Source of the DNA: Candidatus Falkowbacteria bacterium
GTDB taxonomy: Bacteria; Patescibacteriota; Patescibacteriia; UBA11705; JABHMO01
Assembly (NCBI GenBank): GCA_018674305.1
Contig: JABHAL010000002.1
Span: 1,286-65,285, forward strand
Direction of reading: 5' to 3'
DNA: 64,000 nt
Part shown: piece by piece, positions 488 to 61,929 of the stretch
Numbering within the stretch: position 1 is the stretch's first letter
Layout of the letters: the number at the start of each line of letters is the position of its first letter
Notes under the pieces: model-generated
Databases searched by the model: none
Told to the model about the DNA's origin: nothing
The model's input: the letters and a program-made list of their open reading frames with translations, nothing else
Made by a program: the position numbers and the translations under genes

Positions 488-516
488 TTGACAAAACCAA
501 AAATGTATGCTATATT
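488..516 (+). promoter_or_regulatory. consensus sigma70-type promoter with extended -10: TTGACA, 17 nt, atGcTATATT
   Basis: -35 TTGACA at 488-493, a 17-nt spacer, TGn-TATATT at 508-516. No ORF lies downstream on the plus strand. Confidence 0.5.
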
Positions 517-522
517 GCTCAG

Positions 523-753
523 TCCTCCTTAAGGGCTTGTTACAGAAAACAGGTTCGTCACGAAACTCTAAAATCCTGTGATAGAATCTTCAAAAATTCA
601 TGAGGCAATGTATTAATATTGTTGAAAGAATTTTAGGAGATAATAGCTAAAATTTGAGAATTGCAGTAGAAGCTGTATTCAGTAACAATCCCTATATGGC
701 TGCACCTAAATCTGGAGGAGCCCCATTTGCACAGTGCATTTGGGGCATTTTTA
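523..753 (+). ncRNA. candidate small noncoding RNA of ~230 nt, possibly 6S-like; not classified
   Basis: The region starts just downstream of the consensus promoter and contains no ORF longer than 16 codons. Long-range complementarity links 552-562 with 683-693 (ttgttacagaa / ttcagtaacaa) and 533-538 with 708-716, which is compatible with an extended rod. It ends in an imperfect hairpin plus T-run at 721-753. Confidence 0.3.
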
Positions 754-768
754 TTCAAAATGTACTAA

Positions 769-1591: not shown

Positions 1592-3061
1592 TTATTCTTT
1601 TGGTTTCATCAACGGAAAGAAAACTACATCACGAAGATTATCTTGCTCAGTCAGGATTGTTAAAATTCGATCAATTCCCATTCCCCAACCAGAAATTGGT
1701 GGCATGCCGTATTTCATTGAATCTACAAATTCTGGATCACCTTCCATGGTTTCGTCATCACCAGATTTTTTAAGTTTCGCCTGATCCTTGAATCGTTTTT
1801 CTTGATCTATTGGGTCAACTAACTCTGAATAAGCTTTGACAATTTCCCAACCACCGACAACCAACTGAAATTGGTCAACGATTTCTGAATCATCATCATT
1901 ACGTCGCGCCAAGGGCTGTAATTCAATTGGATAATGATATAAAAATACTGGATCAATAATTTTTGGTCGAGAAACTTTTTTGTAAAGGTTATCAATCAAA
2001 GTTGCCAGTCCCATATGCTCCATATCATCAACTTGAATCTTCTTCTTTTTCAAATCTTTCACTAAATCTTTTGGGTTCTTATACTTAGCAACGTCTAACC
2101 CACAATCTTTCTTTACCAACTCAATAAAGTCCACTCGCTTCCACGGAGTTTTGAAATTAACTTTCCGTTTTTTGCCATCCTTACCGGTAATTTCAAGTTC
2201 ATGTGGTAAATTTAATTTCTTAAAAATAAATTCAAACATCTTTTCAGTGAATTTTATATTATCTTCAAAATCCCAATAAGCACAATAATGTTCTAAATGA
2301 GTATGCTCTGGTAAATGTGATGGGTCAATACCTTCATTCCTGAATGCTTTGCCAATTTCAAAAATTTTATCATAACCACCAATGATCAATTGCTTCAATG
2401 GAAGTTCATGTGAGATTCGAAGAAACACATCAATATCTAAACCGTTATTATGGGTCTTGTAAGGTTTGGCATGCGCGCCAGTGGCACTATGCAGTAAAGT
2501 CGGAGTCTCAACTTCGAAAAAATCTTCTTGCCAATAAAACTCCCGCAGAGCTCTGATAAATTTACTACGGAGTTGAAAGCGTTGCATGGTTTCCGGATTG
2601 GAGATCAAATCCAAGTAACGCTGACGGTATGTTGCTTCCACATCTTTCAGTCCATGCCATTTTTCAGGTAATGGTTTCAAAGCTTTACCAAGAAAGGTCC
2701 ATTTATTAACAAGGATAGTTAGTTCACCTTTGTGCGTTACAAAAAGCTCACCTTCCACTCCAATAAAATCACCCAGATCAATTATTTTTTGTAATTGTTT
2801 ATAATCATCCTTACCTAAATCATCTTGCTTGAACGCAATTTGCATGCGACCAGAAAAGTCACTTAAGTGAGCAAAGGTTAATTTGCCCATATCACGAAAC
2901 ATTACTAAACGACCGGCAGTCTTTACTTTTTTGCCCTCCTTCATTTCTTTACATTCAGCCAGAGTCTGTTTCTTGTCAAACTTAGCTGGATAAGGCTCTA
3001 CTCCCATTGATTGTAGTTTTTCTAATTTTTGCAGGCGAACTGCTTCTTCGTTTTGTTCCAT
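1592..3061 (-). CDS. lysS: lysyl-tRNA synthetase, class II
   Basis: 489-aa ORF with an N-terminal anticodon-binding OB region and class II motifs. The C-terminus ends in the ...GIDRILTILTEQDNLRDVVFFPLMKP pattern typical of LysRS. Confidence 0.9.
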   Translation of the reverse strand: MEQNEEAVRLQKLEKLQSMGVEPYPAKFDKKQTLAECKEMKEGKKVKTAGRLVMFRDMGKLTFAHLSDFSGRMQIAFKQDDLGKDDYKQLQKIIDLGDFIGVEGELFVTHKGELTILVNKWTFLGKALKPLPEKWHGLKDVEATYRQRYLDLISNPETMQRFQLRSKFIRALREFYWQEDFFEVETPTLLHSATGAHAKPYKTHNNGLDIDVFLRISHELPLKQLIIGGYDKIFEIGKAFRNEGIDPSHLPEHTHLEHYCAYWDFEDNIKFTEKMFEFIFKKLNLPHELEITGKDGKKRKVNFKTPWKRVDFIELVKKDCGLDVAKYKNPKDLVKDLKKKKIQVDDMEHMGLATLIDNLYKKVSRPKIIDPVFLYHYPIELQPLARRNDDDSEIVDQFQLVVGGWEIVKAYSELVDPIDQEKRFKDQAKLKKSGDDETMEGDPEFVDSMKYGMPPISGWGMGIDRILTILTEQDNLRDVVFFPLMKPKE

Positions 3062-3122
3062 ACAATTGATTACTGAATTATACTGATTTACTGAACGTAA
3101 ATATCAGCAAATCTTATTGAAT

Positions 3123-3515
3123 TTATTTTAAATTTACAACACGTCGTATTTTAACACCTTTATTTGAAAATAAAATTAACAAACCAACTTTTTTTCCAGA
3201 AATTCTTAAATAATCATTAATTTGATCGAATTCACTTTTAGCAAGATAACTACCAACCTTCAACTCAACGACAACCCGCCCATCTATAACGAAATCAAAT
3301 ATTCTTCGACCAATTTTTTCTCCTTTATACAAAAGATCTACTCTAACCTGTTCCTTATACCTTATCTTATTAAGTCTAAACTCTTTAGCAAGTGCCAACT
3401 GATAATACTTTTCTCTATGCCCACTGCCTAAGCTATTTTAAACTTCAAATGCTGCACCTATTATTTTATCAGTTAATTCCGATTCTGGATAATTTTTGTT
3501 TACATTAATACTCAT
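3123..3515 (-). pseudogene. GxxExxY-family protein (PD-(D/E)XK-like) interrupted by an in-frame TAA
   Basis: The ATG at 3513-3515 opens MSINVNKNYPESELTDKIIGAAFEV*NSLGSGHREKYYQLALAKEF..., which continues as the 3123..3398 ORF (DFVIDGRVVVELK...). The GxxExxY motif GHREKYY lies downstream of a TAA at 3438-3440 in the same frame. Confidence 0.6.
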
Positions 3516-3628
3516 AAATATTCAGCATATCAGTATTATTCAGTACTCACTTACAGAATTATACCTGAATTAGCAAAATTTTGCAAAAAATAAAAAACGT
3601 CCCAGATTGCCAGAACGCTTATTGACTT

Positions 3629-3868
3629 CTACTCCAATGCTTCTTCACTCAGGTACCACACGTACACATAATAAGAACAACTATTCTCTGAATCCCCAAT
3701 CGCGGTACTTAACTTAAATTTCTTAATGTCAGCTTTATTTCTATTAACAAACTCTTTGGCCAATCTTTGACCAGCATCAAAAGTGTCGTCATAAGTATTA
3801 CCGTGATCTTTACTGTGTGTTCTGAATACACGTATCTGCCACTCTAGAGGTGTGTCTACTTTTGACAT
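3629..3868 (-). CDS. small hypothetical protein, 79 aa; paralog of the next gene
   Basis: ORF with a terminator downstream: an 8-bp stem containing G-U pairs, followed by a U-run at 3587-3620 on the minus strand. It shares end motifs with 3877..4119 (...YLSEEALE versus ...YFAEEELK). Confidence 0.4.
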   Translation of the reverse strand: MSKVDTPLEWQIRVFRTHSKDHGNTYDDTFDAGQRLAKEFVNRNKADIKKFKLSTAIGDSENSCSYYVYVWYLSEEALE

Positions 3869-3876
3869 AACGCCTC

Positions 3877-4119
3877 CTATTTCAACTCTTCTTCAGCAAA
3901 ATAGGCCAACTGAATATTCATAAAATCGTCGCCGTTGCCGTCCCTTCCATAGGTTATTGGCACTATCTTATAATCAGAACTTCCAATTCCGTGTTTATTC
4001 ACAAAATCCAGAACAGCTTGCACGCAGCCGTCATTAACTTCAGCGATTCCATCTTTGCTATCTTTATTCGATCGCCAAAATGATTTACGAAACCATTGCC
4101 TATACTTGCTTTCACTCAT
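3877..4119 (-). CDS. small hypothetical protein, 80 aa; tandem paralog
   Basis: 8-nt spacing to the downstream paralog. Similar size, and both have a D/G-rich middle. Confidence 0.4.
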   Translation of the reverse strand: MSESKYRQWFRKSFWRSNKDSKDGIAEVNDGCVQAVLDFVNKHGIGSSDYKIVPITYGRDGNGDDFMNIQLAYFAEEELK

Positions 4120-11567: not shown

Positions 11568-11596
11568 TTGACAAAATATATAATCTATGCTATAAT
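11568..11596 (+). promoter_or_regulatory. consensus promoter TTGACA, 17 nt, atGcTATAAT
   Basis: -35 at 11568-11573 and TGnTATAAT at 11588-11596. An AAGGAGG Shine-Dalgarno lies 7 nt before the ATG at 11644. Confidence 0.55.
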
Positions 11597-11643
11597 ACTA
11601 AGATTTGATGATTGAAAAATAACTTTCCCTTAAGGAGGATACC

Positions 11644-12321
11644 ATGAGAAAGTTCATCAATTTGTTTGTGATTTTAGGAATAATTATGTTTGCCAGCAAC
11701 GTGCAAGCAAAAGATGTGGATATGTCAAACTTTGACATGCGCGTGCGATTCAGCCGTGCAATAGAGTCCTGGGCGTTTCACAACTTCGATGTCCTGTTCG
11801 AGGCCAATGCATTTATCACTGACTACCAGACGATGAATGCCATGTTTGGTCTGTTGTACCACGTCGATCGGAACAGTAAACTGGTTCTGATGATTGGTCA
11901 ACAGTTGGGCGCAGGCGTGAGCAGCAACAATGTAGCTCTGACCGGTCGCTGGCATCAACGTGTAAGTCGGGTTGTAGGTTTCAAGTTGGAGGCGGATCTT
12001 TTCATTCCCATCCAGGCCAACAATGCCGAGAGCCAACCCACGGTCGGCTTCAGAACCTACGAGTCACTTGACTTTATGATCGAGCGCAGGATGTTCATCT
12101 CGCTCGGACTGGAACAGGAAAAGCTGGACAACTTCCGATATCGGTTCGGACCCAGTTTCACCTGGCAGTGGCTTCGAGTTTGGGCCGGATACCTTCATCA
12201 GGAAGAATCCGGTACAAAGCAAAGTTCCACAAATCAGCCAACGCCGGTGAACGCACAACCTCGCTGTACTGACTGCGACTGCGGAGATATGTTCTTCGCC
12301 TCAGTAGCGCTAACCTTCTAA
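11644..12321 (+). CDS. secreted protein with signal peptide; beta-barrel-like; C-terminal ...ASVALTF
   Basis: Signal peptide MRKFINLFVILGIIMFASNVQA|KD, alternating amphipathic strands and a C-terminal aromatic residue. Gene GC is ~50% versus ~33% in the flanks. Confidence 0.55.
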   Translation: MRKFINLFVILGIIMFASNVQAKDVDMSNFDMRVRFSRAIESWAFHNFDVLFEANAFITDYQTMNAMFGLLYHVDRNSKLVLMIGQQLGAGVSSNNVALTGRWHQRVSRVVGFKLEADLFIPIQANNAESQPTVGFRTYESLDFMIERRMFISLGLEQEKLDNFRYRFGPSFTWQWLRVWAGYLHQEESGTKQSSTNQPTPVNAQPRCTDCDCGDMFFASVALTF

Positions 12322-15410: not shown

Positions 15411-18389
15411 TTACAATTTTCGAAATTCACAAATATCTTTAAAGTCACAATGCCCACAAATGTGTTGACTGGGTTTAGGATCAAAATTTTGCTTTTTAAT
15501 TTGTTCAATATTATCCAAAAACCTTTGTTTGAGTTTTTCCTTGTCTTTAGAGTTGCCAAGAAAAGAGACTTGGCTGTCATCATCAAGAAAATAATAGGTT
15601 AATTTTTCTAACTTTATATTCAAAACTTCTTCAGCTGCAATCTGATAGAACATTAGCTGGCGTCGGTCCTCTGTGGATAATTTTTCTTTAACTTGCCCAG
15701 TTTTGTAATCAATAATTTCAAACTGCCCTTTTTCTAATTCATCCACTCGGTCAATACGCCCAACAAAGGTGTATTCCCCAATCTTCAATCGGAACGACTG
15801 TTCCAATAATTTAACTTTTGGTTTGTTTTTTTCAAAACCTTGGTGGAAGTTTTTTAATAAATCTTTGCCTTTTTCTAAATACTCCTCTTTTTGTTTTGCA
15901 TTAACATACCAATCATCCTGCCAGTTTTCATTATAAACTTCATATAACCTTTCTAACGACAATAATCTATTTTGGTTTGCTGGTTCGCGAGACATCCCTG
16001 TCTCGCTCCCTCCTACCGCAAATATATCTTGTTGGGTATGCAGTCCAACCGTAAAACATTCTTCCAAAAATTTTTGTAAAGTATTGTGAATAGTTGAACC
16101 AAATGAAAAATAGTGATTACCAAAGGTTGGAATTTTTAAAACATTGGCAAACTTGTACTTCAAAGGACAAGTTTCATAAGTCTGCATTTGTGAATAACTA
16201 AAATTGCGCGGTAGCTGATATTCAAAAGCCTTAGAGTCATCCTTTTGTACTCGCTCAACTGTAGGCTCAGCTTTTCCAGATTCTTCAGGTTTATTATACC
16301 CTAATTCTGTTAAAAAGCGAGACAATTTCTTTTTTCGTGCTCCACCATAGTCATCAGCTGAAGTGAAGAACAATCCCCTTTTTGCTCTGGTCATTGCTAC
16401 ATAAAATAATCTCCGTTCTTCCTCTAAATGAAAATCACCTTCTGAGGAGTCTTCTTTTATCAAAGAATCTGGAATTTCAATTACCTCTTTACGCTGATCG
16501 GTCGGAAATTTTCGATCAACCAAACAAGAAACGAACACATAATCAAATTCTAAACCCTTGGCACTGTGAATTGTCATAATACGCACCATGTCCGGACCAG
16601 TTTCCACGTCAAACGCCAATTTCCCACTTTCGCCCGATTGCATTTCCATATTCAAAAGCTCCATTAAGTCACTAAGCCTCGGATCCTCATACGACATTTC
16701 CACTTCTTGAATTTTCTTGAAAAATTGTTGAACAAAATCTAGCGTTTCTTTTGCTTTTGCTGGTTCCAAATCATTCAAATACTCCAAATAACCTGAGCCG
16801 TACAAAAAACTTAATAAAACTTCAGTCGGTTTTTTATTTTGTGCTAACTGAGTATCTTTTTCAACTTGAACTAAAATATTGTTAATTGACTTCAAAGTTT
16901 GTTCAGTTAAGCCTGGAACTGTTGAAGCCTGCTTTAATGATTCGAATATAGATATTGATTTTCTCTTAGCTAAATGAACCAATTTAACAATTTGTTCAGG
17001 CTCAATATTTAGAAATGGCAAGTTTAGAATTCGATAAACTGCCGCGCTCTCATGATAATTATCCAGCAACTTGAAATAATTAATAATATCAACCACAACT
17101 GATTTATTGTACAACCCTCGCATAGCCAGGAATTGGTACGGAATTTGAGCTTGTTCTAAATAATTAATAAAAATATTGGCGCTATCATTAGCCCTAACTA
17201 AAATTGCTATATCTGACCACTCCGCTTGCTGATCTTGTTTTAATTTTATTATTTTTTGAATTACTGCCTTTGCCTCTTCCTCAACAGACGACAAATGATA
17301 GTGAACAACCTCGCCTTTTTCAGAAACGTTAGATTTTAATTTTTTATCAATACCTAATTTTTCCTCCAATCGATATGGATTGTTTTGTAAAATAAAATTG
17401 TAGGCTAAATCTAGAATTTCCTGTGTAGATCGATAGTTTTCTATTAATACAACTTCTTTAGCCGTTGGGTAATCTTTTTTGAACTGCATTATATTAGAAA
17501 TCGAAGCTCCACGAAACTTGTAAATGCTCTGATCATCATCTCCTACAACTGTGATATTGTTTTTGGGTGTGGCCAAAAGTTTAATTAACTCGTATTGAAC
17601 AAAGTTTGTATCCTGAAACTCGTCAACCAAAATGTGTTTGAACTGTTGACGATATTTAGCCAAAATTAATGGGCGCTTTTTAAATAATTGAATTGTATAA
17701 TTTATTAAATCAGCGAAATCCAAGCTCTCATTATCAATTAAAATTTGCTGATAAGTCTGATAGGCATTGGCAATTTCCTCAATTCGAAGAATTTCTTGTT
17801 TTAATATTTCTTTTTGATTAGCTTCGTCAACCTTACTGAAATCTATTTTGTTTACGAAATCGTGAACATCATCATTTAACTTGATTTCCTGTGCATATTT
17901 TAAATAATTTTCAGGATAAATACCTTCATCCTTGCAACGAGAGAAATGCTTTAACAGTGCGTGGATAAACTTGGTTGGATTACCTAACGGCTGATAATAT
18001 TCTAATTTGAACTTGTCCAAATTTTTCCTCACCAAGAGCCAGGCCTCCGTCCCATCCACGAGTTTGTAATTATTTGGCAAACCAATATCCAGAGCATGCC
18101 GTTTCAAAATTTTGTCACAAAAAGCATGAAAAGTTGAAATCCACAAATCAACATAACCATATGGAAGCATTTGATCCACGCGCTCTTCCATTTCCTGCGC
18201 AGATTTTTCAGTAAAAGTTAAAGCTAATACTTCATCAACATTAGCATTTTTTTCAGTAATCAAATATGCAATTCTGGCAGTTACAACCCGAGTCTTCCCC
18301 GTACCAGCTCCAGCCACAATCAACTGAGGTCCATCTTCGTGAATAATGGCTTGCTTTTGTTGTTCATTTGATTCAGAAATTAGACTCAT
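15411..18389 (-). CDS. UvrD/PcrA-type SF1 helicase fused to a C-terminal PD-(D/E)XK (Cas4/RecB-like) nuclease with a Cys4 cluster
   Basis: AGAGTGKT Walker A near the N-terminus and helicase motifs through ~aa 700. The C-terminus carries YETCPLKYKF...CGHCDFKDIC, a Cas4/AddB-like Fe-S nuclease signature. Confidence 0.8.
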   Translation of the reverse strand: MSLISESNEQQKQAIIHEDGPQLIVAGAGTGKTRVVTARIAYLITEKNANVDEVLALTFTEKSAQEMEERVDQMLPYGYVDLWISTFHAFCDKILKRHALDIGLPNNYKLVDGTEAWLLVRKNLDKFKLEYYQPLGNPTKFIHALLKHFSRCKDEGIYPENYLKYAQEIKLNDDVHDFVNKIDFSKVDEANQKEILKQEILRIEEIANAYQTYQQILIDNESLDFADLINYTIQLFKKRPLILAKYRQQFKHILVDEFQDTNFVQYELIKLLATPKNNITVVGDDDQSIYKFRGASISNIMQFKKDYPTAKEVVLIENYRSTQEILDLAYNFILQNNPYRLEEKLGIDKKLKSNVSEKGEVVHYHLSSVEEEAKAVIQKIIKLKQDQQAEWSDIAILVRANDSANIFINYLEQAQIPYQFLAMRGLYNKSVVVDIINYFKLLDNYHESAAVYRILNLPFLNIEPEQIVKLVHLAKRKSISIFESLKQASTVPGLTEQTLKSINNILVQVEKDTQLAQNKKPTEVLLSFLYGSGYLEYLNDLEPAKAKETLDFVQQFFKKIQEVEMSYEDPRLSDLMELLNMEMQSGESGKLAFDVETGPDMVRIMTIHSAKGLEFDYVFVSCLVDRKFPTDQRKEVIEIPDSLIKEDSSEGDFHLEEERRLFYVAMTRAKRGLFFTSADDYGGARKKKLSRFLTELGYNKPEESGKAEPTVERVQKDDSKAFEYQLPRNFSYSQMQTYETCPLKYKFANVLKIPTFGNHYFSFGSTIHNTLQKFLEECFTVGLHTQQDIFAVGGSETGMSREPANQNRLLSLERLYEVYNENWQDDWYVNAKQKEEYLEKGKDLLKNFHQGFEKNKPKVKLLEQSFRLKIGEYTFVGRIDRVDELEKGQFEIIDYKTGQVKEKLSTEDRRQLMFYQIAAEEVLNIKLEKLTYYFLDDDSQVSFLGNSKDKEKLKQRFLDNIEQIKKQNFDPKPSQHICGHCDFKDICEFRKL

Positions 18390-30859: not shown

Positions 30860-31504
30860 TTATTTTTTTGGCGAAATAACAACTGTAAACTCACCTTTTT
30901 CTTTTACTTGTTCTAGAATTTCTTCAGCTGTACCTCTATATATTGTTTCAAATTTTTTAGTTAATTCACGAGCAACTACAATTTGTCGATCTTCTTCAAG
31001 TTCAGTTTTCAACTTTTCTAGTGTTTTAATGATTCTGTGTGGTGATTCATAAAAACAAACTGTATATTTTGAATTTTTCATTAAGTCTAACGTCTTTTGT
31101 TGCCCCTTGCGAGGCATAAATCCTAGAAACAGGAACTTATCGGTTGGATAACCTGAAATTGATAAAGCAGAAGCTACTGCGCTTGGTCCTGGAATTGGAC
31201 AAACTTCATACCCAGCTTCAATTGCTAATTGAACTAATTTACCACCAGGATCAGAAATTCCTGGGGTTCCAGCATCGGACACATAAGCGATGTCTTCATA
31301 TTCAGCAATCAGCCTTTCAATTTTTTCTTCTGATGAATGCTGATGTAAGCTGATTAGCTTTTTCTTCAATTCAAACTTTTCAACCAACTTTCTAGTTTGC
31401 CGGGTATCTTCACAAAGAATAACATCTACATTTTTCAATACTTCAATTGCACGTAATGTCATATCCTGTAAATTTCCAATTGGGGTTCCAACAATGTAAA
31501 TCAT
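30860..31504 (-). CDS. rsmI: 16S rRNA (cytidine1402-2'-O)-methyltransferase RsmI (tetrapyrrole-methylase fold)
   Basis: MIYIVGTPIGNLQDMTLRAIEVLKNVDVILCEDTR is the typical RsmI N-terminus. Confidence 0.8.
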   Translation of the reverse strand: MIYIVGTPIGNLQDMTLRAIEVLKNVDVILCEDTRQTRKLVEKFELKKKLISLHQHSSEEKIERLIAEYEDIAYVSDAGTPGISDPGGKLVQLAIEAGYEVCPIPGPSAVASALSISGYPTDKFLFLGFMPRKGQQKTLDLMKNSKYTVCFYESPHRIIKTLEKLKTELEEDRQIVVARELTKKFETIYRGTAEEILEQVKEKGEFTVVISPKK

Positions 31505-31556
31505 ATTAACTAAATTATAGCAAAATTTAGCAATTTGTCCATGTATCCCACGGCAC

Positions 31557-31585
31557 TTGACAAGATTATAGATTTATGCTATAAT
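31557..31585 (+). promoter_or_regulatory. consensus promoter TTGACA, 17 nt, atGcTATAAT
   Basis: -35 at 31557-31562 and -10 at 31580-31585 with an upstream TGn. It has the same architecture as the promoters at 488 and 11568. Confidence 0.55.
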
Positions 31586-31591
31586 GTGGCT

Positions 31592-31767
31592 ACATGTTTC
31601 ATAGAAAAAACTATTGTCGAAAAAAGGAGGTGAACCATGGGGGCATGGCGGAGAAATACCGCAGTTGGTCAAAGTTAACTCGGTGTAACGAGTCACAGGC
31701 CAATAAGCCCAACAATCTACAGAAACAACACATCGCGCCCCGATCAACGTCGGGGCGCACTATTTTT
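31592..31767 (+). ncRNA. short transcript unit of ~175 nt containing a 13-codon SD-led ORF and ending in a strong terminator; candidate sRNA or leader peptide
   Basis: AAGGAGGTGAACC-ATG opens MGAWRRNTAVGQS* (31637..31678). The terminator is gcgccccga-tcaacg-tcggggcgc plus TTTTT at 31735-31767. GC is elevated. Confidence 0.4.
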
Positions 31768-31785
31768 AAATTATCCACAATCGTA

Positions 31786-31814
31786 TTGACTCTCGTAATT
31801 TGACATGATATTAT
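31786..31814 (+). promoter_or_regulatory. second promoter TTGACT, 17 nt, TATTAT
   Basis: -35 at 31786-31791 and -10 at 31809-31814. It drives the GC-rich ORF-free segment 31820-32110. Confidence 0.45.
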
Positions 31815-31819
31815 ATAAA

Positions 31820-32110
31820 AGCCTTTTGAGGAGAAAGGCAAAGGTAAAACTGATTTTGAAAACTGAAGGAGGGAATCACGCTTAAACCTACAATTAGAGC
31901 GAGTAATTAAGGTCAAATGGCCTTACCACTACGAGTTGACGTCAACGTAACGTCCCGTAGGGAAAAAAACAAAGCACCGCGCTAGGCACACAATCTTTGG
32001 AAAGAGGAATAGACAGCTTGTCTGTCAATCCCGATAAGGCAACCTGTCATCCACAAGATGAAAGGAAAACAAGATTGGTCCAATAAAGCCGGTGCATTTT
32101 TTTACAAAAA
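31820..32110 (+). ncRNA. candidate noncoding RNA of ~290 nt, GC-rich and ORF-free; unclassified
   Basis: No plus-strand ORF. Contains the perfect palindrome gttgacgtcaac plus several hairpins. It lies antisense-downstream of a minus-strand gene terminator. Confidence 0.3.
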
Positions 32111-32116
32111 ATTAAA

Positions 32117-32150
32117 AGGAGACTTTTTGTTGCAAAAAGCCTCCCTTGAT
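32117..32150 (-). terminator. terminator of the 87-aa Cys-rich gene
   Basis: ggaggcttttt-gcaac-aaaaagtctcc followed by a T-run on the minus strand. Confidence 0.45.
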
Positions 32151-32424: not shown

Positions 32425-32550
32425 TCAATTCCTCCGAAAAAAGGTTAACCTTGCTTTTAAAACATATCTGAGTAATACCTAATACTAACAGGTTTCTAAG
32501 AAAATGTCAACTCTTTTAAAATCAATCAGACTTGCTATAATAAAGACACT

Positions 32551-33429
32551 ATGAAATCCAAGCGTAACAAAACTATAAGCGTCACAAAAGAGGATGAAAA
32601 AAACTTTCCAGTTTTTAAAATACACAATACCCAACCTCCAAGACCAAATTTAATCAACAAACTTTTTTATGGAGACTGCATTAAAGAGATGTCTAAATTA
32701 CCAGACAGTTTTGTTGACTTAATCGTAACTGACCCACCCTACACCATACGCAAAGATTTCGGTAAAGGCACCGTCACCACGAAAGAAAAAGAATTTATAA
32801 CCTGGTGCGAAAACTGGATTGAACAATGTTTTCGAATACTCAAGCCAAACGGTTCAATTTATATTTGCATAAACTGGGAAGCTTCAACTATTATTGAAGC
32901 TATCTTAAAAAACCATTTCATAATTCGCAATCGCATTACATGGAAGAGAGACAAAGGGCGCGGCGCCAAAAAGAATTGGAAAAATAACATGGAAGATATC
33001 TGGTTTGCAACCAAGGGCGATGATTACACTTTTAATTTAGAGGCTGTTAAAGTTAAAAAAGCTGTTATCGCCCCATACGTTGACAAAAAAGGAAAACCAA
33101 AAGATTGGCAGGAAGTTGATGGCAAGAAATTTCGTATGACTCACCCATCCAACATTTGGACTGATTTAACGGTCCCCTTTTGGTCAATGCCGGAAAACAC
33201 TGAACATCCTACCCAAAAACCGGAAAAACTTATTGAAAGAATTATACTAGCAAGTTCGAACAAAGGGGAATTAATTTTTGATCCATTCATGGGCTCTGGA
33301 ACAACCGCTGTAGTTGCTAAACGACTAGAACGAAACTACTTAGGCTTTGAAATTGAAAAACGGTTTTATATTTTGGCTCAGAAACGACTCAAAGCATTGA
33401 ATCAACTCCGCGAAAGCATAGGCATTTAG
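32551..33429 (+). CDS. beta-class amino (N6-A or N4-C) DNA methyltransferase
   Basis: Motif IV DPPY (LIVTDPPYT) precedes motif I FDPFMGSGTT, the beta permutation. No restriction endonuclease gene is adjacent. Confidence 0.75.
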   Translation: MKSKRNKTISVTKEDEKNFPVFKIHNTQPPRPNLINKLFYGDCIKEMSKLPDSFVDLIVTDPPYTIRKDFGKGTVTTKEKEFITWCENWIEQCFRILKPNGSIYICINWEASTIIEAILKNHFIIRNRITWKRDKGRGAKKNWKNNMEDIWFATKGDDYTFNLEAVKVKKAVIAPYVDKKGKPKDWQEVDGKKFRMTHPSNIWTDLTVPFWSMPENTEHPTQKPEKLIERIILASSNKGELIFDPFMGSGTTAVVAKRLERNYLGFEIEKRFYILAQKRLKALNQLRESIGI

Positions 33430-45384: not shown

Positions 45385-45517
45385 AATTTTTTGATATATT
45401 AATTATAGCATAATATTTATTGTAATTAAAATTACTTTATTGACAAAAGAGGTCTTTATTGTTATATTAATAAAAATGAACGTTAACAAGCAGAAATGCT
45501 TTATATAGGAGGAGGTT

Positions 45518-46288
45518 ATGGTCTGGACAAGTGCAGATGAAAGCCGAGCACGCAGAGAGGGGTTCAGTGTTGAGCAAGAAAGAAATCGCCAACGGTATAT
45601 AGATCACATTAAGGCGAATAATGCTCTACAAGAGAAAGAAAAAGAAAGAAAAAAAAGAGAAAAAGAAAAAGATGATGATAAGATGAAAGTCCAGTTAGTA
45701 TTGATGTTCTTTGTTGCTCCAGTTGTGATTATTTTTATGATTGTCCTTTTAATCATTCAAATATCTGGCAACGGTCACATCCTCACCGGTGATTCCAAAA
45801 TTGCTTCTGAGTATAAGCAAAAGAGAAAGGAAGTAGTAGAACTGCAAGAAAAATTGTCCGAAAAAATAACTAAACTGGGAGTTGCTGAAACAGAATTCAA
45901 AGCAACAATCGCTAGCAATGTTGGGACAATTCAGAGTAACATTAGACGTGGGCAAATCAGGAGCTTCAATGATGCAGTAAGGAATCAAGAAAGCAACACC
46001 AAACTCAAGATAATTGCCAAAGCACAAGCTTATCTCGAAATCGTGACTGCTGAGAAAAGAGCAGTTGCCAGAGCGGGTGTTGAGCTTCAAGGAATACGGG
46101 CTAATCTTGACCTTGATCTAACAATGCTAAAAGCGACAGATCAAGAAGAAATGGACGATTTGATTAAAAAGCTTGATAATGTCATCACAAAAATCAAGCC
46201 TGTAGCAGAGGAATACGTAATCAATGATTACAACAGAGGTTCCTCAGATCTCAAAAGCACTTGGAATAAATATTTTATTCAGAAGTAG
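45518..46288 (+). CDS. membrane-anchored (signal-anchor) protein carrying the shared ~150-aa helical domain; cassette member 1
   Basis: Charged N-terminus then TM helix VQLVLMFFVAPVVIIFMIVLLII. The C-terminal domain A.QKAQAY...LDLDLTML...VITKIKP is shared with the next three genes. It has its own TTGACA-17-TATATT promoter and a terminator at 46294-46322. Confidence 0.6.
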   Translation: MVWTSADESRARREGFSVEQERNRQRYIDHIKANNALQEKEKERKKREKEKDDDKMKVQLVLMFFVAPVVIIFMIVLLIIQISGNGHILTGDSKIASEYKQKRKEVVELQEKLSEKITKLGVAETEFKATIASNVGTIQSNIRRGQIRSFNDAVRNQESNTKLKIIAKAQAYLEIVTAEKRAVARAGVELQGIRANLDLDLTMLKATDQEEMDDLIKKLDNVITKIKPVAEEYVINDYNRGSSDLKSTWNKYFIQK

Positions 46289-46402
46289 ACGTGGACTCGA
46301 CAATCTTATTGTCGAGTTTTTAAATTCAGAAAACATTGACAAATAACTAGAAATAAGGGAAAATAACCTAATTGAACTTTAACAACAAAACAAGGGGGAA
46401 AC

Positions 46403-46951
46403 ATGCGACATCATACAATATGTTTTTTTACATTAATATTTCTTCTTTGTTTACCCACCTGCAACAAAAGAGATGCAAAAAAGGAAACTAAGGAAAAATA
46501 TGAAACTGTAATTTCCTTAATGGAAAAACTACATGAGAAGCATGTCAACATTGACAACACAATAAAAAAGTTCAAAGACAAAAAAACTGAATTCAAAAAA
46601 GCCATCAAAGGGATTAAATCCAAACGTGGAATTTCGTCTTATGCTGAGGCAGAAAACAACAAGCCTTTAATGATCCATCTAACAGCCTACCAAAAAGTTG
46701 AAGCATATTTAAAAATACTTAAGGAAGAAGATAAAAAAACTGAACAAGCCGCCATTGAATTATATGGTATTCAGATGCAACTTGAGCTTGACATTGAAAT
46801 GCTTGAAAGCATAGAAAATGCCGACCTGGAAGAAACACTTAAGCAATTGAATTTAGTGATTGACAAAATCCAGCCTACAGCAGATAACCTGGTATTAAAT
46901 GATGAAAACACACCCAAAACGCCACTAGAAAAACTTTTCAATGAACTTTGA
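46403..46951 (+). CDS. lipoprotein carrying the shared domain; cassette member 2
   Basis: MRHHTICFFTLIFLLCLPTCNK lipobox-like signal. Domain ...YQKVEAYLKIL...LELDIEML...VIDKIQPTADNLVLNDENTPKTPLEKLFNE. Terminator at 46964-46993. Confidence 0.6.
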   Translation: MRHHTICFFTLIFLLCLPTCNKRDAKKETKEKYETVISLMEKLHEKHVNIDNTIKKFKDKKTEFKKAIKGIKSKRGISSYAEAENNKPLMIHLTAYQKVEAYLKILKEEDKKTEQAAIELYGIQMQLELDIEMLESIENADLEETLKQLNLVIDKIQPTADNLVLNDENTPKTPLEKLFNEL

Positions 46952-47066
46952 AAACAACTCATCAAAACCAGCACCACACCGTGCTGGTTTTTTCATTGAC
47001 AAATCATAAAAAATAAGGGAAAATAACCTAATTGGACTTTGACAACAACCCATTGAGGAGGCCTTA

Positions 47067-48887
47067 ATGAAACATTACTTGAATACAATAGTTCTCCTAC
47101 TTGTTATTATTTTCTTCTCGGTGACCTGCAGTAAAAATGAACAGCCAAATGAAGTCATAGATTCAAAACCCAACAGCTCCGCTAAACTACTTGCTAAATT
47201 CAAGCACACACAAGCAGTTTATGGAATTGACTGGCATCCTGATGGAAAACTAATTGCATCTAGACACTACCGAGACACAGCTTTCATCTGGAACACTGAA
47301 AACAAAACTCGACAATTTGTTCATGATGGCAAGCAACTCACCGACATAAAATTCAGTACTGATGGTAGTTACTTAGCCTTTATTGATCACGAAATTTCTA
47401 AATATAGCTGTCAGCGCGAATGTCGTTACTCTGACTATGAACGTTGCAATGACTGCAAGAAAAAACACGAGAACGATTACGATGTGAGATTCTTGTCAAA
47501 AGTCTACGACCTTAGACTAAAACATTACTTAAAAGAAATAGCAAGTGGCTCCGCTCAAACAATCTCAGCTGACCTCAAGGTATATGTCACCCACGCTCTC
47601 GATTCAAAAATAATCTACTTTGATGGGACATACTTCTTTTCCTCCAGCAGTCGTGCAGGGATGGAGACTTTCATAGAGTCTAGTTCGAAAAATCACTTTT
47701 TTCATGAAGTAAAAAGTTATTCTGTGCGAAAAACAGAAGAAACAAAAGAAGGAAATACACACCTCGGCGCAATGACAATTTTCTTGTCCACAAAAGGAAA
47801 TCTGTTAAAGATTTTCAATCAAGCCGACGACGGGAAGGGGCCTCATTGTTCCATAAAACAATGCAGTCATGATTACAAAATTATGGCTGCAGAGTGGCAA
47901 CCCGGAACTAAGAAAATAACAGTTTTAAGTTCTGACAACATTCTAAGTCTTTGGGATAGTTGTTTCTCAGGTAAACAGCTTTACACCTACAATCACTCTG
48001 GCAGTGAAGCAGTGACCCTAAAATGGAATGTATCAGGTGATGTTCTGGCAGTTCAATTCATGAACAATATTTTACTGTTCAATGAAAAATTGGAACTCCA
48101 AAAAACACTGGATATTATGAGTAATGATATTGCCTGGAACAAAGATGGCAATATTTTAGCAGTCATTACCAAAAATAAAATTTATTTTTGGGACAACCTG
48201 AATTCGAATCTAACTTTTCATGAAAGTTCAGAAAAAATTAATGATTTTGCCTGGAATCCGGAATTCAATCAATTCGCCCTGGCGACTGAAGTGAATGACG
48301 ACGAAGGCTTTGTAGAAATTTGGGAGATTGACTCTTCTTATAGAATCATCGTCGCCAACAAAAAGAGAACTTCCAATAATACAGAACATCAGCTGACAAT
48401 CAAAGAAGAAACAGTAAAAAAATTAACCACTGTTCGCTCTCTCATAAAACAATTACAAAAAAAGGAAGAATCACTATCAGATGATCTTCGATCCTTCCAA
48501 ACTGACGTAGACAGATACAAATCAACAATCACTGACTTGAAACTACACAACAATATTGCAAGCTATAAAGAAGCGGTCAAGAATGACCGGATAAACAATT
48601 ATCTTGTAGCGATGCAAAAAGCTTTGGCCTACATGGACTTTATTAAACATGAGCTTTTAACTACTAGCAAAAGTTTAGTGGAGTCTGAAGGCACTCAATT
48701 ACAACTGGAGCTTGATGCAAAAATTCTGGACAGCTTAGACGAGAACAAATTGGACCAGATGATTGCTCAATTGGACTTGGTTATCACAAAAATTCAACCA
48801 AACGCCCAGGAACTCGTGATTAAAGAAAATGACACACAAAAAATACCATTAGAAAAACTATACAATGAGTATTTTGAAGATGAGTAG
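47067..48887 (+). CDS. lipoprotein with an N-terminal beta-propeller (WD40/PD40-like) and the C-terminal shared domain; cassette member 3
   Basis: Signal peptide with SVTC|S. Repeated WHPDGKLIAS / FSTDGSYLAF / WNVSGDVLAV / WNKDGNILAV blades. C-terminus ...AMQKALAYMDFI...LELDAKIL...VITKIQPNAQELVIKENDTQKIPLEKLYNEY. Terminator at 48895-48923. Confidence 0.6.
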   Translation: MKHYLNTIVLLLVIIFFSVTCSKNEQPNEVIDSKPNSSAKLLAKFKHTQAVYGIDWHPDGKLIASRHYRDTAFIWNTENKTRQFVHDGKQLTDIKFSTDGSYLAFIDHEISKYSCQRECRYSDYERCNDCKKKHENDYDVRFLSKVYDLRLKHYLKEIASGSAQTISADLKVYVTHALDSKIIYFDGTYFFSSSSRAGMETFIESSSKNHFFHEVKSYSVRKTEETKEGNTHLGAMTIFLSTKGNLLKIFNQADDGKGPHCSIKQCSHDYKIMAAEWQPGTKKITVLSSDNILSLWDSCFSGKQLYTYNHSGSEAVTLKWNVSGDVLAVQFMNNILLFNEKLELQKTLDIMSNDIAWNKDGNILAVITKNKIYFWDNLNSNLTFHESSEKINDFAWNPEFNQFALATEVNDDEGFVEIWEIDSSYRIIVANKKRTSNNTEHQLTIKEETVKKLTTVRSLIKQLQKKEESLSDDLRSFQTDVDRYKSTITDLKLHNNIASYKEAVKNDRINNYLVAMQKALAYMDFIKHELLTTSKSLVESEGTQLQLELDAKILDSLDENKLDQMIAQLDLVITKIQPNAQELVIKENDTQKIPLEKLYNEYFEDE

Positions 48888-48998
48888 ATAACACAAACCA
48901 GCACCACACCGTGCTGGTTTTATTATTGACAATAACGTAAAATATTAGTAAGATACAATGATTATGAACTTTTACAACAAAATGACAAGGAGGCCCAA

Positions 48999-51218
48999 AT
49001 GTCCAGATGGCTAAAGACAATTATTACTGTTATTATTATCATTTTTGCTTGTTCTTGTAACAAAGACAAAAAGGCCAAGAAAAATAAGTCAACTCGTCCT
49101 GAAGTCGCTGAAAAAAACTCCCCTAACTCCAATACTGAACCAGCTCCCCTCTCACAAGAAAAAGAAGCTCCACCAAAGTCAAAAAAAGAAATTTCCGAAG
49201 AAAAGCTTGAACATGTAAAGCATCTTCGCAGAAAACTCGAAAGAAAAGAAAGAACCTTGGCTGGCGCACTTATTACATACAAAGACAAAATTTCTATTTT
49301 TGTTCAAGAAATCAAACAAGAACGTAACCGTAGAAACTTGGTTGAATACAATCAGGCAATTTCAAGTAATTCAATCAAGCATAATCTCGAGGCAATTCAA
49401 AAAGCTGAGGCCTACTGGGGAATTACTAATAGGGAAAAAGTAAAAACAAAACTGGCAATTGTCGACGCAGAAGGAACTGAAAAACTACTTGATCTAGACA
49501 TCACCATGTTTAGCACCATGCCTGAAGATGAAATCGACAAACTACTTGATGAACTTGACCTTGTAATTAATAGAATCCAACCGACAGCCAGAGATCTTGT
49601 TATCACAGACAAGGAAACTGTGCTTACTCCTCTTGATGAGATTTACGAAAAACATATTCGTAAAGAGGAACGTGAGCGAGAAAAAAAGGAAATTGAGCGT
49701 AAAAAAAAAGCTGAAGCTGACCGGTTAGAACGAGAGCGTCAGGTAAAACTAGCAAAAGAAAAAGCGTTAGCAGATACCCAGGCTCGTGCAGCCCTTAATG
49801 CTGAAGCTCGTCGCCAAGCGTTAATTGCTAGGAAACAAGCCGATGAAGAGGCTGCTAGTCAAGAGAGGACTGCCAGACTACAAGCAATCGCCGAGGCTAC
49901 ACGCCAAGCAAAAATTGCCAGACAGCAAATAACAGCCGAAGAAAACCGCATAGCTGATGAAGTAGTAAAACAAATTGAGTATAAGAAACGCGAAGCTGAA
50001 AATCGTGCCCGAGAAAAAGCTGCTGAACTTGCTAGTAAGCAAAAAACAGCAGCAGCGATTGCTAACATCAAAATTATCAAACCCACTATCTGGACTTCTA
50101 TTGCATATTACAGACCTGGGGGTGATGGTGCAGGTTACATCCGTTGGTCAAATGATAGCAAAGCAGTGGCTATCACCACCTCATCAAAAATGACTATTAA
50201 GGGTGTTCCTCAAAGCACAACTTATGAGCTTGAATCTAATTACGATAACAGCGACTATATAACCGACATGATCTGGTCTCAAAGCAAAACCAAAATTGCA
50301 ATCTATTATTCACATTCTTGTGCACTGGAAAGAGGAAACGCCAAGATTGCAATTTACTCGTTAACAAATGATAAAGAGCTCTGGAGGGTGGAAGTCGAAT
50401 GCTCCCAAGCCGCTAGTTTCCTTGGTTGGTTTGGTGATTATATTGTCCTTAAAGCATCCGCTGGGTACAGTAGAAATTTTCACATTTACATTATCAATAC
50501 GAAAACCAAGAAAACTCAATCATTCACAGCTGACGCGATAACCCCAGTAAACAACTCCTCTGTCTTTGCTGCAAGCTCAAAAAGAATAATCCAAGTCAGT
50601 CTTTCTGACAGAACAATTCTAAAAGAGTTTAAGTTTTGTCGAGATGATGACGAGTCTCTTTATTATTCTTTTTGCCCAGGAGAGATTGACATTCATAAAC
50701 TCGCCTACACGAGCGGGCATCTAATTTCATCAGAGTCGCCACAAAACGGAGAAAGTAGCTTCTCCATTTGGGACACAACTTCTGGAAATAAACTCCACTG
50801 GTTTAAAGGTGACGAACCAAGAGATCTTTGGTGGCTAAAAGACGGCAAAACAGCAGTTATTGCTTTGTCGTCTGGCACAATTTTTACAGTAAATGCGAAA
50901 AGTGGATCAATTTACGAGAAAAAGCTCGTAGATGGTGCGATTGGCTTTTATGGCTATAATGTAAACACTTGGTCCACTAAAAAACCTCATCTTGTTATCA
51001 ATAAAAATTCTCCTCAGCACGAAACAGCTCTTAATGAAAAAGCAGGTTCGTACAATACTCTCTTTGTCATGGATATTAGGGACCAACAAACAAAGGCCGT
51101 CTTGGTTATGGAGTCAGATATCTCAGATTCTGTCAGACTTTCATGGAGCCCAAACGGCAAGTACCTCGCAATTGGAGACAAGGGACTCCTTCATGTTTTC
51201 AATGTAAGCAATATTTGA
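48999..51218 (+). CDS. lipoprotein with the shared domain, a long charged coiled-coil and a C-terminal beta-propeller; cassette member 4
   Basis: Signal peptide with FACSC|NK. Central AIQKAEAYWGI...LDLDITMF...VINRIQPTARDLVITDKETVLTPLDEIYEK. A ~150-aa E/K/R/A-rich helix follows, then WSNDSKAVAI / WSQSKTKIAIYY / WLKDGKTAVIAL / WSPNGKYLAIGD blades. Terminator at 51223-51251. Confidence 0.6.
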   Translation: MSRWLKTIITVIIIIFACSCNKDKKAKKNKSTRPEVAEKNSPNSNTEPAPLSQEKEAPPKSKKEISEEKLEHVKHLRRKLERKERTLAGALITYKDKISIFVQEIKQERNRRNLVEYNQAISSNSIKHNLEAIQKAEAYWGITNREKVKTKLAIVDAEGTEKLLDLDITMFSTMPEDEIDKLLDELDLVINRIQPTARDLVITDKETVLTPLDEIYEKHIRKEEREREKKEIERKKKAEADRLERERQVKLAKEKALADTQARAALNAEARRQALIARKQADEEAASQERTARLQAIAEATRQAKIARQQITAEENRIADEVVKQIEYKKREAENRAREKAAELASKQKTAAAIANIKIIKPTIWTSIAYYRPGGDGAGYIRWSNDSKAVAITTSSKMTIKGVPQSTTYELESNYDNSDYITDMIWSQSKTKIAIYYSHSCALERGNAKIAIYSLTNDKELWRVEVECSQAASFLGWFGDYIVLKASAGYSRNFHIYIINTKTKKTQSFTADAITPVNNSSVFAASSKRIIQVSLSDRTILKEFKFCRDDDESLYYSFCPGEIDIHKLAYTSGHLISSESPQNGESSFSIWDTTSGNKLHWFKGDEPRDLWWLKDGKTAVIALSSGTIFTVNAKSGSIYEKKLVDGAIGFYGYNVNTWSTKKPHLVINKNSPQHETALNEKAGSYNTLFVMDIRDQQTKAVLVMESDISDSVRLSWSPNGKYLAIGDKGLLHVFNVSNI

Positions 51219-51315
51219 CAATAAACCCACCTTCGACAAGGTGGGTTTTTACTTGACAAAACCATTAAAATGTATAAAACTAGTATGAAAGGTTGATCTT
51301 TAACAGAAGGAGGTC

Positions 51316-52167
51316 GTGATGACGAAAAGATTAAAATTCTCCAGACTTATCCTAGGTATTATCTGTATCGCACTTGCAATTCTGATTTTCATGGCCTTAA
51401 TTCGTTTTGGCACTGTATTTGCTTTTCTCATGATCTATCCGTGGATTTCCGACGCCTTGCAATCCTCTGCTGGAATGAATCACTGGCTAGCAAGTATAAT
51501 CGCCTTTGTTCCGGCAGTCGTCGGGGTAATCGGCATTGGGATGCTTTTCTCCTGGAATAGGAAAAGACGAACTATCGGCATGGTCATGGCGGGTATCGCC
51601 TATCTCACCACGTGCGCCTTTATGTACTCCATTGAGGCAGATCGCTCATTTGACCCCATTACAGGAAAAGCAAATAAATGCTATGCTGCAGGCTTAAACG
51701 GTTATGAAGAAATTTCTTGTGAATGGAAATTCCATCCCGAGACTGGCAATCCCGTCATCACAGACCTTGGTGAAATTAAAAAAATCATCACCTCAATGAA
51801 TGTTTCAGAAAGTGAACCAAGGATCTCCAATAAGGTCCGTCCAAACAAAAACCTACGTTTCTTCTCTGTTGATGGAACACCTATGTATTGGTACTATGAA
51901 TTTCCAGATGGCGTAATTGACATGTTTGACTCCCCTGGTAGACATCCACACTTCAACACAGTACTGCAGCCCATCACGCCAGAAATTGTAAAAATCGTTC
52001 TTTATCCTCAAGATAATTGGGATATTGAAAGAGTTAATTTGCCAGACTCAAAGCCCATCAGCCAGGGTGACCCAAAAGCGCTTTCATCTGCCAACAGCGG
52101 AAACGATAGCGCTATGGAAGAACTTCGCGATCTCTATATCGAGAGAAAAAAGCAACTAAAACAGTAA
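51316..52167 (+). CDS. membrane protein with 3-4 N-terminal TM helices and an extracytoplasmic C-domain
   Basis: 283-aa ORF with its own promoter-like TTGACA at 51253 and a GGAGG Shine-Dalgarno. Confidence 0.45.
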   Translation: MMTKRLKFSRLILGIICIALAILIFMALIRFGTVFAFLMIYPWISDALQSSAGMNHWLASIIAFVPAVVGVIGIGMLFSWNRKRRTIGMVMAGIAYLTTCAFMYSIEADRSFDPITGKANKCYAAGLNGYEEISCEWKFHPETGNPVITDLGEIKKIITSMNVSESEPRISNKVRPNKNLRFFSVDGTPMYWYYEFPDGVIDMFDSPGRHPHFNTVLQPITPEIVKIVLYPQDNWDIERVNLPDSKPISQGDPKALSSANSGNDSAMEELRDLYIERKKQLKQ

Positions 52168-61798: not shown

Positions 61799-61929
61799 TG
61801 AAAATTTACTGTAAATTAGAAATTGTAAATTGAAAATTTTATTTTATAGTTCGGTTTCTGTTCGCATCTACTACCATTATACCGAACAGAAACCGAACGT
61901 CAATGATTAGCTGTGGATAACTTTTAAAA

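Follow-up and report, generated by a model that had tools for sequence, protein, structure and literature searches.

Two predicted tandem small-RNA genes upstream of rsmI in a Candidatus Falkowbacteria genome, with Shine-Dalgarno elements and a DnaA-box promoter

In the mccA minigene RNA, ribosome binding relieves upstream anti-termination, induces termination and strongly stabilises the RNA, and mcc-type open reading frames (ORFs) of 2-8 codons are translated reiteratively (PMC4231749, PMC6495379). The STAB-SD and hbs-type stabilisers of Gram-positive mRNAs carry a sequence resembling a Shine-Dalgarno (SD) element near the 5' end, which probably recruits the 30S subunit and so hinders exonucleases that degrade the RNA from 5' to 3' (PMC4113751, PMC5737220). 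Leader ORFs followed by terminators in trpL-type attenuators release small RNAs able to act in trans (rnTrpL/peTrpL; PMC6614838, PMC7968998), and the dual-function small RNAs SgrS/SgrT, RNAIII/hld and SR1/SR1P encode peptides of ~20-50 aa with conserved sequence (reviewed in PMC12310071). Here we compare these systems with the interval upstream of rsmI in a 64-kb stretch of a Candidatus Falkowbacteria genome (Patescibacteria, or candidate phyla radiation, CPR), the whole of which we call the window.

The gene order at the locus is metG (-), rsmI (-), the interval, an 87-aa Cys-rich ORF (-) and an N6/N4 DNA methyltransferase (MTase) gene (+). The RsmI encoded here matches a Candidatus Falkowbacteria protein at 100% identity. 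Our favoured explanation, to which we assign a probability of roughly 0.6 as a whole, is that the interval holds two separate small-RNA genes, RNA1 and RNA2, in tandem on the + strand, with a ribosome-engaging, DnaA-linked mechanism. Both predicted transcripts appear to be independent units and previously undescribed small RNAs, that is, new RNA families of known kinds (bacterial small RNA; minigene-carrying small RNA). For comparison we used contigs of related organisms that encode RsmI at 62-82% identity, designated below by L-numbers for their contig loci. The elements of the two units are the following.

31557..31585, + strand: P1, the RNA1 promoter, TTGACA-17-TG-n-TATAAT, matching the sigma-70 consensus at 12/12 positions plus the TG
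31592..31767, + strand: RNA1, predicted transcript of ~175 nt, its start placed from the -10 element
31624..31633, + strand: perfect SD AAGGAGGTGA, 3 nt before the ATG (6 nt from the GGAGG core)
31637..31678, + strand: 13-codon mini-ORF MGAWRRNTAVGQS, with ATG at 31637 and stop TAA at 31676-31678
31648..31703, + strand: RNA1 core helices within the ORF and just past its end, Hb (31648-51/31659-62), Hc (31665-70/31698-703) and He (31679-82/31689-92)
31735..31767, + strand: RNA1 intrinsic terminator, stem 31735-31758 of 10 bp (8 G-C), then ACTATTTTTA
31771..31779, + strand: perfect DnaA box TTATCCACA, 6 nt upstream of the P2 -35 element
31786..31814, + strand: P2, the RNA2 promoter, TTGACT-17-TG-n-TATTAT, 10/12 plus the TG
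31821..32104, + strand: RNA2, predicted structured RNA of ~284 nt, its start likewise a placement
31821..31839, + strand: RNA2 hairpin P1, 5'-terminal, GCCUUU/AAAGGC; L083, L086 and L092 have a hairpin of unrelated sequence in the same place
31866..31873, + strand: SD-like AAGGAGGG in the loop and 3' side of RNA2 hairpin P2, found in 5/5 RNA2 homologues
31929..31960, + strand: RNA2 P5, two-part helix CUACG..GACGU/ACGUC..CGUAG, holding the palindrome GTTGACGTCAAC
31974..32103, + strand: RNA2 3' domain, in which P6, a 9-bp long-range stem (31974-83/32087-95) with one bulged base, encloses ~100 nt including P7

An earlier note on this DNA, made from the letters of the window, had marked both promoters, the SD-led 13-codon ORF and the intrinsic terminator, all of which we find where it placed them. 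Its suggestion of one or two small-RNA genes likewise holds up, in the form of two units with their own promoters and terminators that are conserved with compensatory changes. Two of its descriptions stand in part. The second unit, which it described as ~290 nt of GC-rich, ORF-free sequence, spans ~284 nt without a conserved ORF, but "GC-rich" overstates the case, as the G+C content of the interval is 40.6% against 36.0% for the whole window (46.6% for RNA1 and 42.6% for RNA2, the latter at the 93rd percentile among windows of the same size). The palindrome GTTGACGTCAAC is present at 31935-31946 but is species-specific, relatives keeping only GACG...CGUC; because it is not conserved and only the GACG/CGUC helix (inner P5) is kept, we rejected it as a protein-binding site.

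Five species (the window, L083, L086, L092 and L120) carry RNA2 in the syntenic position, and each of the four relatives has a promoter at the position equivalent to P2. RNA2 is recovered by nhmmer in 4/5 species, and a covariance model (CM) built from the window RNA2 as a single sequence and run with filters off returns the five expected syntenic sites as its five top matches. Its predicted minimum free energy (MFE) has z = -3.55 against shuffles. Covariation is found in the 3' half, where 98.1% of cells are paired in a five-sequence alignment and double changes occur in 12 of the 26 pairs, with no one-sided changes; none of 500 shuffles equals this, and slid-partner controls are 28-46% paired. 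Within the individual helices, P6 is 100% paired across the five species and includes 3 compensatory pairs, P7 includes 5, and the P5 helices, which a C/A-rich linker joins to the 3' domain, are 95-100% paired with 4 (CUACG/CGUAG here, against CUGCG/CGCAG in L083 and L086). P6 and the U-run at 32097-32103 form the predicted RNA2 terminator. In the 5' part, hairpins P1-P4 (P3 being two-tier with ACAAU in its loop, P4 simple) recur in relatives at equivalent positions with unrelated sequences, according to a per-helix table that served for these helices, the 5'-half CM being weak (E 0.05-0.7). Comparative alignment for covariation, a check that the earlier note had proposed, thus yields compensatory pairs both in the 3' half of RNA2 and in the helices of RNA1 described below. 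We consider it highly probable that RNA2 is an independent small-RNA gene, and on these comparisons it represents a putative new class of structured RNA with good covariation.

Beyond the immediate relatives, an RsmI-profile scan of contigs gave, among the matches listed, RsmI relatives that were all at or below 56% identity, and RNA2 was absent from the loci of these among the matches listed (nhmmer on all; single-sequence CM on 41). A metagenome scan with the pattern ACCGMGCT-N(85-115)-AGCCGGTSCNNTTTTT gave 23 matches, of which 2 are genuine, both from the same species as L086; the other 21 are chance matches in high-GC contigs. No match was found in viral contigs scanned with RsmI.

The SD-like element of RNA2 is kept as A(A/G)GGAGG(G) in the five species. 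An AUG or AUC lies 0-3 nt downstream, and we rejected a conserved mini-ORF within RNA2 on the ground that each of the five species has a different reading frame there. This arrangement resembles STAB-SD/hbs, in that AAGGAGGG lies near the 5' end of RNA2 without a conserved ORF and RNA1 has its own SD and AUG; whereas the described elements stabilise long protein-coding mRNAs, the predicted target here would be a non-coding RNA. A CsrA-type sponge was also rejected, there being ~7 GGA motifs in RNA2 when counted by eye against ~6 expected from a composition estimate.

The DnaA box TTATCCACA occurs once in each of the 5/5 islands that carry RNA2 (we use island for the interval and its counterparts in relatives), always 6-7 nt from the -35 element; with at most one mismatch allowed, it is found in 0/4 islands without RNA2. 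Perfect DnaA boxes number 3 in the 64-kb window against 0.95 expected, a count reached in 6 of 100 shuffles, and the two further boxes lie at 15672-15680 (-) and 61912-61920 (-). We looked for a GC-skew inflection at the locus and found none. An identity as oriC was rejected, given the single DnaA box at the site, the 3 boxes in 64 kb and the lack of a GC-skew inflection. Promoters controlled by DnaA boxes are known from the autoregulation of dnaA and from the DnaA regulon of B. subtilis. With these P2 shares a consensus 9-mer beside the -35 element that is conserved across species, and it differs from them in having a single box, a predicted product that is a non-coding RNA, and a site away from the origin.

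The position of RNA2 raises the possibility that it is a cis-acting, riboswitch-like 5' leader of the MTase gene, from which the insertion of the 87-aa ORF would have parted it in the window. In L083, L086 and L120 the MTase gene does start ~25-80 nt past the RNA2 terminator on the same strand, and the terminator stem encloses a structured domain. Yet in every species an extended -10 element belonging to the MTase gene itself, with leaderless-type spacing, comes right after the U-run, RNA2 is intact in the window and in L092 despite the intervening convergent gene, and L090, L093 and L127 have the MTase gene but lack RNA2. We found no alternative antiterminator, and no Rfam riboswitch matches at the locus. 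We regard this explanation as very unlikely.

Known RNA families were sought at several thresholds. Rfam 15 gave 0 matches at the gathering threshold in the whole 64-kb window, a scan suggested in the earlier note; at E <= 10 the locus gave only unrelated weak matches, below half of the gathering score, and at E <= 0.1 nothing relevant appeared in nine related islands, where a single unrelated weak match was to SurA (L090, E 0.019). ARAGORN, run on the window and on 10 related loci, found 0 tRNA or tmRNA genes. Rfam and ARAGORN are therefore in keeping with the report in the earlier note that tmRNA and RNase P hallmarks were absent. CPR genomes are divergent, and the very failure of both programs to detect any housekeeping RNA in the window leaves room for a tmRNA, RNase P RNA, signal recognition particle (SRP) RNA or 6S RNA that has diverged past detection. 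Against this, neither RNA has the 5'/3' terminal helix common to all four families, no weak but consistent Rfam match runs across the five homologues, RNA2 is missing at the site in four close relatives, and RNA1 varies from 110 to 175 nt; we give the idea almost no credence. RNase P, SRP and 6S were each rejected on the absence of the terminal 5'/3' helix from RNA2, whose 5' end forms its own hairpin and whose 3' end pairs ~100 nt upstream, and on the lack of Rfam matches.

Turning to RNA1, its promoter P1 shares the 12/12 score with just one other promoter in 64 kb and is conserved in L119, L083, L086 and L123, and its predicted fold has an MFE of -53.9 kcal/mol (z = -3.6 against shuffles). 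Homologues were found in two relatives, the closest with sequence available, namely in L119 and as RNA-B of L083. The L119 homologue (nhmmer E 2e-4, 72% identity; its RsmI is 73% identical) keeps the promoter, the SD (as AGGAGGT), the ATG, the ORF length and the stop position. Its mini-ORF peptide, MRALRLKIAVGHK, is identical to the window peptide at 6/13 residues, the codon changes between the two being 2 synonymous and 7 non-synonymous. All 14/14 pairs of Hb, Hc and He are retained in L119, 2 of them via compensatory double changes, both of which alter the peptide sequence. L083 RNA-B, a shortened version of RNA1 located directly upstream of L083 RNA2, keeps the SD (as AGGGAGG), the AUG, hairpin Hb with an A-rich loop and a terminator, and its ORF is reduced to 4 codons, MICG and a stop. 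The mini-ORF thus has 13, 13 and 4 codons in the window, L119 and L083, respectively. Since SD, AUG and hairpin are kept while ORF length and residues vary, the conserved module of RNA1 is, to judge from these alignments, the SD-AUG-hairpin and not the peptide. That RNA1 is an independent small-RNA gene we consider likely.

RNA1 and mccA are alike in having a strong SD, a very short ORF and an intrinsic terminator in a short RNA. In RNA1 the terminator 5' arm may pair with the beginning of the ORF: with the terminator 3' arm omitted, it pairs with the GGGGG of codons 2-3, a weak fold (z = -1.5). The differences are that RNA1 has 13 codons against 7, that the same strand has no coding sequence downstream, and that its C-terminal residue is Ser, or Lys in L119 and Gly in L083, in place of the obligatory Asn of mccA; no gene for MccB (ThiF-like) is in the Pfam list within +/-10 kb. 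With trpL it shares a leader-sized, SD-led ORF upstream of an intrinsic terminator, and it departs from trpL in its lack of tandem regulatory codons, of a downstream biosynthetic operon and of a conserved ORF length. Like the dual-function small RNAs it would be an independent gene combining conserved structure with a translatable small ORF, and unlike them it has an ORF of 4-13 codons whose peptide is not conserved. We rejected a type I toxin-antitoxin system, as the peptide is hydrophilic and of 13 aa and no convincing antisense promoter emerged from the scans.

The trpL likeness also underlies a proposal, put forward in the earlier note, of a leader-peptide attenuator feeding a downstream RNA. 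On that proposal RNA1 and RNA2 form one device, the SD-led ORF and terminator together forming an attenuator that depends on ribosomes and controls whether transcription from P1 continues into RNA2. The geometry allows it: the short ORF lies 57 nt upstream of the terminator, the terminator 5' arm is able to pair with the ORF start, and RNA2 starts only 54 nt past the terminator. However, RNA2 has a promoter and DnaA box of its own in 5/5 species, different units precede it in L120, L086 and L092, and the ORF lacks any run of regulatory codons. Moreover, the terminator, with its 10 bp (8 G-C), is far more stable than the alternative pairing, and what follows on the + strand is no coding gene, only a non-coding RNA and then a convergent gene. 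We think such a device improbable, and attenuation a minor component of the locus at most.

In 9 species rsmI is separated from an N6_N4 MTase or Ham1 gene by a gap of 0.6-2.5 kb. On the strand opposite rsmI, each gap has consensus promoters, structured RNA richer in G+C than its flanks, and intrinsic terminators, and the content of the islands diverges strongly between species. The earlier note had held that a normal protein gene in this interval of relatives would speak against an RNA locus; the syntenic gap is free of gene calls in 8/9 related species, L127 having one call of 130 aa. Comparative sequence points to the gap upstream of rsmI as a conserved, fast-evolving, lineage-specific small-RNA island in Falkowbacteria. 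Six contigs (L118, L119, L121, L122, L123 and L124) end in the island, 44-594 nt upstream of rsmI, and L121 departs from L120 immediately past the RNA2 terminator; such contig breaks suggest repeats or strain-level hypervariability at the island. Within L083, a ~42-nt repeat, CTTGAC(A/C)CTTCGACTCCTGCTAGTCGCTCAGGGTCTTGACAA, stands before two successive RNA units at 3775-3816 (-) and 3325-3366 (-) and indicates a putative promoter-proximal duplication within the island. Contig L002 (1-7838) is identical over the rsmI-to-MTase segment, and its far side runs into genes for a TonB-dependent receptor, YidC and CTP synthase; L001, unlike L002, shows Falkowbacteria neighbour genes beside that segment, and L002 is probably a chimeric assembly. 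A locus identical to that of the window is also present in the ENA samples ERZ27250149 and ERZ27237639.

This conservation bears on a further alternative, namely that the interval has no function and consists of chance promoter and terminator strings in AT-rich DNA, or that it hides a missed protein gene (69 aa on the + strand or 101 aa on the - strand). It is true that promoter-like sites are at chance level (7 against 6.2), so that their count is not elevated, and that the 69-aa (+) and 101-aa (-) ORFs overlap the interval. Neither ORF is conserved, however, and the 69-aa ORF (leaderless, from 31594), which we rejected as a gene, crosses the terminator and P2, is absent from L119 and has no significant Pfam match. 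Conservation and covariation across species with 65-82% RsmI identity and the nearly uniform lack of gene calls in the syntenic gaps (8/9) also stand against it, and we attach negligible probability to it. The promoters of the interval are distinguished by their quality and their conservation in relatives, not by their number; terminator-like sites number 7 in a 2-kb region against 1.8 +/- 1.4 in shuffles.

Islands of relatives contain arrays of SD-led mini-ORFs of 7-15 codons that encode one peptide family, x[R/K][Y/F][P/T/A][S/T/Y]G[F/Y]x followed by a stop codon, and these arrays lie inside long G+C-rich RNAs. The mini-ORFs in question, together with a 4-codon mini-ORF found in three species, are located as follows.

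L086 3334-3568, L092 3516-3758, L093 2429-2925 and L127 3101-3698, all - strand: mini-ORFs of the peptide family
L125, position 999-1031 of the island (2726-4000), - strand: mini-ORF of the peptide family, MCKRYPSWFT
L083 ~3681-3667, L086 3676-3662 and L123 125-111, all - strand: mini-ORF MHWP and a stop, 4 codons after a perfect SD

The family peptides include MRYTSGFP and MYTSGFD in L086/L123; MFTSGFL, MPYTSGFL and MHTSGFV in L092; MRRFTSGFL and MRRYPSGFC in L093; and MKRRYAYGFQ, MGRYPTGFK and MRKRFPTGYV in L127. Non-redundant loci totalling 892 kb contain 1,237 SD-led mini-ORFs, 10 of which have the motif, and 10/10 of these lie in islands (L086, L092, L093 and L127) on the RNA strand; the background of the motif without the SD requirement is 5 in 37,517. 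Third codon positions vary and Ser switches between UCN and AGY, synonymous variation that indicates selection at the peptide level in the family mini-ORFs. The sister species L086 and L123 have identical SD+ORF blocks separated by spacers with substitutions and indels, and the MHWP mini-ORF differs among its three species in start (ATG/GTG), Pro codon (CCC/CCG) and stop (TAA/TAG). No SD-led ORF of the window has the family motif, the RNA1 peptide included.

These families lend some colour to the view that RNA1 is chiefly a micro-peptide gene, in which MGAWRRNTAVGQS would be functional, a diverged member of the island family, and the RNA structure would merely stabilise the message. The perfect, properly spaced SD, the ATG and the stop have counterparts at the same positions in L119; mini-ORFs of related islands are conserved as peptides (10/10 motif matches in islands), with SD+ORF blocks that stay identical between L086 and L123 despite diverging spacers; and a directly translated 7-aa peptide is known from mccA (PMC6495379). 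What speaks against it is the comparison of RNA1 with its own homologues, in which only 6/13 residues are shared with L119 and 2 synonymous changes stand against 7 non-synonymous ones, compensatory RNA changes have been accepted at amino-acid cost, and the L083 orthologue has shrunk to the 4 codons of MICG; the window peptide, besides, falls outside the family motif. We judge a primarily peptide-encoding RNA1 unlikely.

A wider proposal, drawn from the relatives and not from the window, is that the island is devoted to micro-peptides of 4-15 residues, translated directly from structured RNAs without leader or processing. We entertain it as a possibility, short of even odds. Peptides such as MRYTSGFP and MHWP would, with the same tentative standing, be embedded singly or in arrays in large G+C-rich RNAs, and could be nascent-chain ribosome-arrest modules or free intracellular peptides. 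In that case RNA1 would represent a diverged or degenerate example of such an RNA, accompanied by RNA2 as a constant partner under DnaA control.

Under the favoured explanation of two separate small-RNA genes, RNA1 would be transcribed from P1 with a single-stranded leader carrying the SD and AUG, ORF codons folded in three helices, and a terminator; RNA2 would be transcribed from P2 with a 5' hairpin, the SD-like AAGGAGGG, covarying helices, the linker and a domain closed by the terminator. Both would be abundant, stable and ribosome-engaging. A 30S or 70S ribosome at the 5' SD would shield the RNA from 5'-to-3' decay, as in STAB-SD/hbs, and on the RNA1 minigene a ribosome would block pairing of the terminator 5' arm with codons 2-3 and so favour termination, in the manner of mccA. 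Synthesis of RNA2 would depend on DnaA status.

Several points weigh against this explanation. All transcript ends are predictions. For RNA1 there are three homologues and two compensatory pairs only, and its antiterminator-type fold is not significant at the z given above. For RNA2, fitting of the alignment to the model makes the percentage of paired cells too high, the CM of the 5' half is weak, as noted, and the spacing from the SD-like element to AUG/AUC (0-3 nt) is uninformative on 30S binding. Finally, mini-ORFs of the same island in relatives are clearly under peptide-level selection, so the RNA1 peptide could matter more than assumed.

The genes next to the interval differ from it in their expression signals.

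31514..31541, - strand: rsmI promoter TGGACA-16-TG-n-TATAAT, 11/12 consensus plus the TG, back to back with P1
32161..32424, - strand: convergent 87-aa Cys-rich ORF with C-terminal CxC..CxxC and no Pfam match
32115..32147, - strand: terminator hairpin of the 87-aa gene, a 15-bp stem and T-run, separate from RNA2

Both rsmI (31502-31541 (-)) and the MTase gene (32520-32553 (+)) have TATAAT followed after 9 nt by the ATG, and because the ATG is so close their mRNAs look leaderless, on sequence criteria. An SD-like sequence precedes only ~9/57 long ORFs of the window by a crude count, so the perfect SDs of the interval are conspicuous. The 87-aa ORF sits between RNA2 and the MTase gene as an insertion; a sister contig of L092 has a 74-aa gene call at the equivalent position, and L083, L086 and L120 have none. 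We take the hairpin at 32115..32147 to be separate from RNA2 because RNA2 homologues end upstream of it, at AGCCGGUSC and a U-run.

Elsewhere in the window, the other 12/12 promoter, at 11568 (feature 11568-11644 (+)), precedes an SD-led, secreted-looking protein of 225 aa. A further candidate small-RNA gene lies at 488-755 (+), with a promoter TTGACA-17-TG-n-TATATT (11/12) at 488-516, then ~210 nt free of ORFs, and a GCCCCAAATGCACTGTGCAAATGGGGC-type terminator-like hairpin with T-run at ~722-752. The + strand genes that form a block at ~45400-51400 (+) have perfect GGAGG SDs, and the GC skew there is near zero, whereas the remainder of the window is strongly C-skewed, with genes mostly on the - strand; the block may be a foreign or differently regulated segment.

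CPR/Patescibacteria genomes are tiny (~1 Mb), and we know of almost no regulatory RNAs described in them. RNA2 behind a conserved DnaA box would be a rare non-coding example of such control and suggests a link between replication status and riboregulation. If the micro-peptide locus outlined above were real, it would represent a type of genetic element as yet undescribed for bacteria. Across a family-level clade, 0.6-2.5 kb of strongly promoted, non-protein-coding DNA appears to be retained at one chromosomal site, and its perfect SDs, set in a genome mostly without them, may serve to park or load ribosomes on the RNAs, or may yield peptides below the size that gene finders report.

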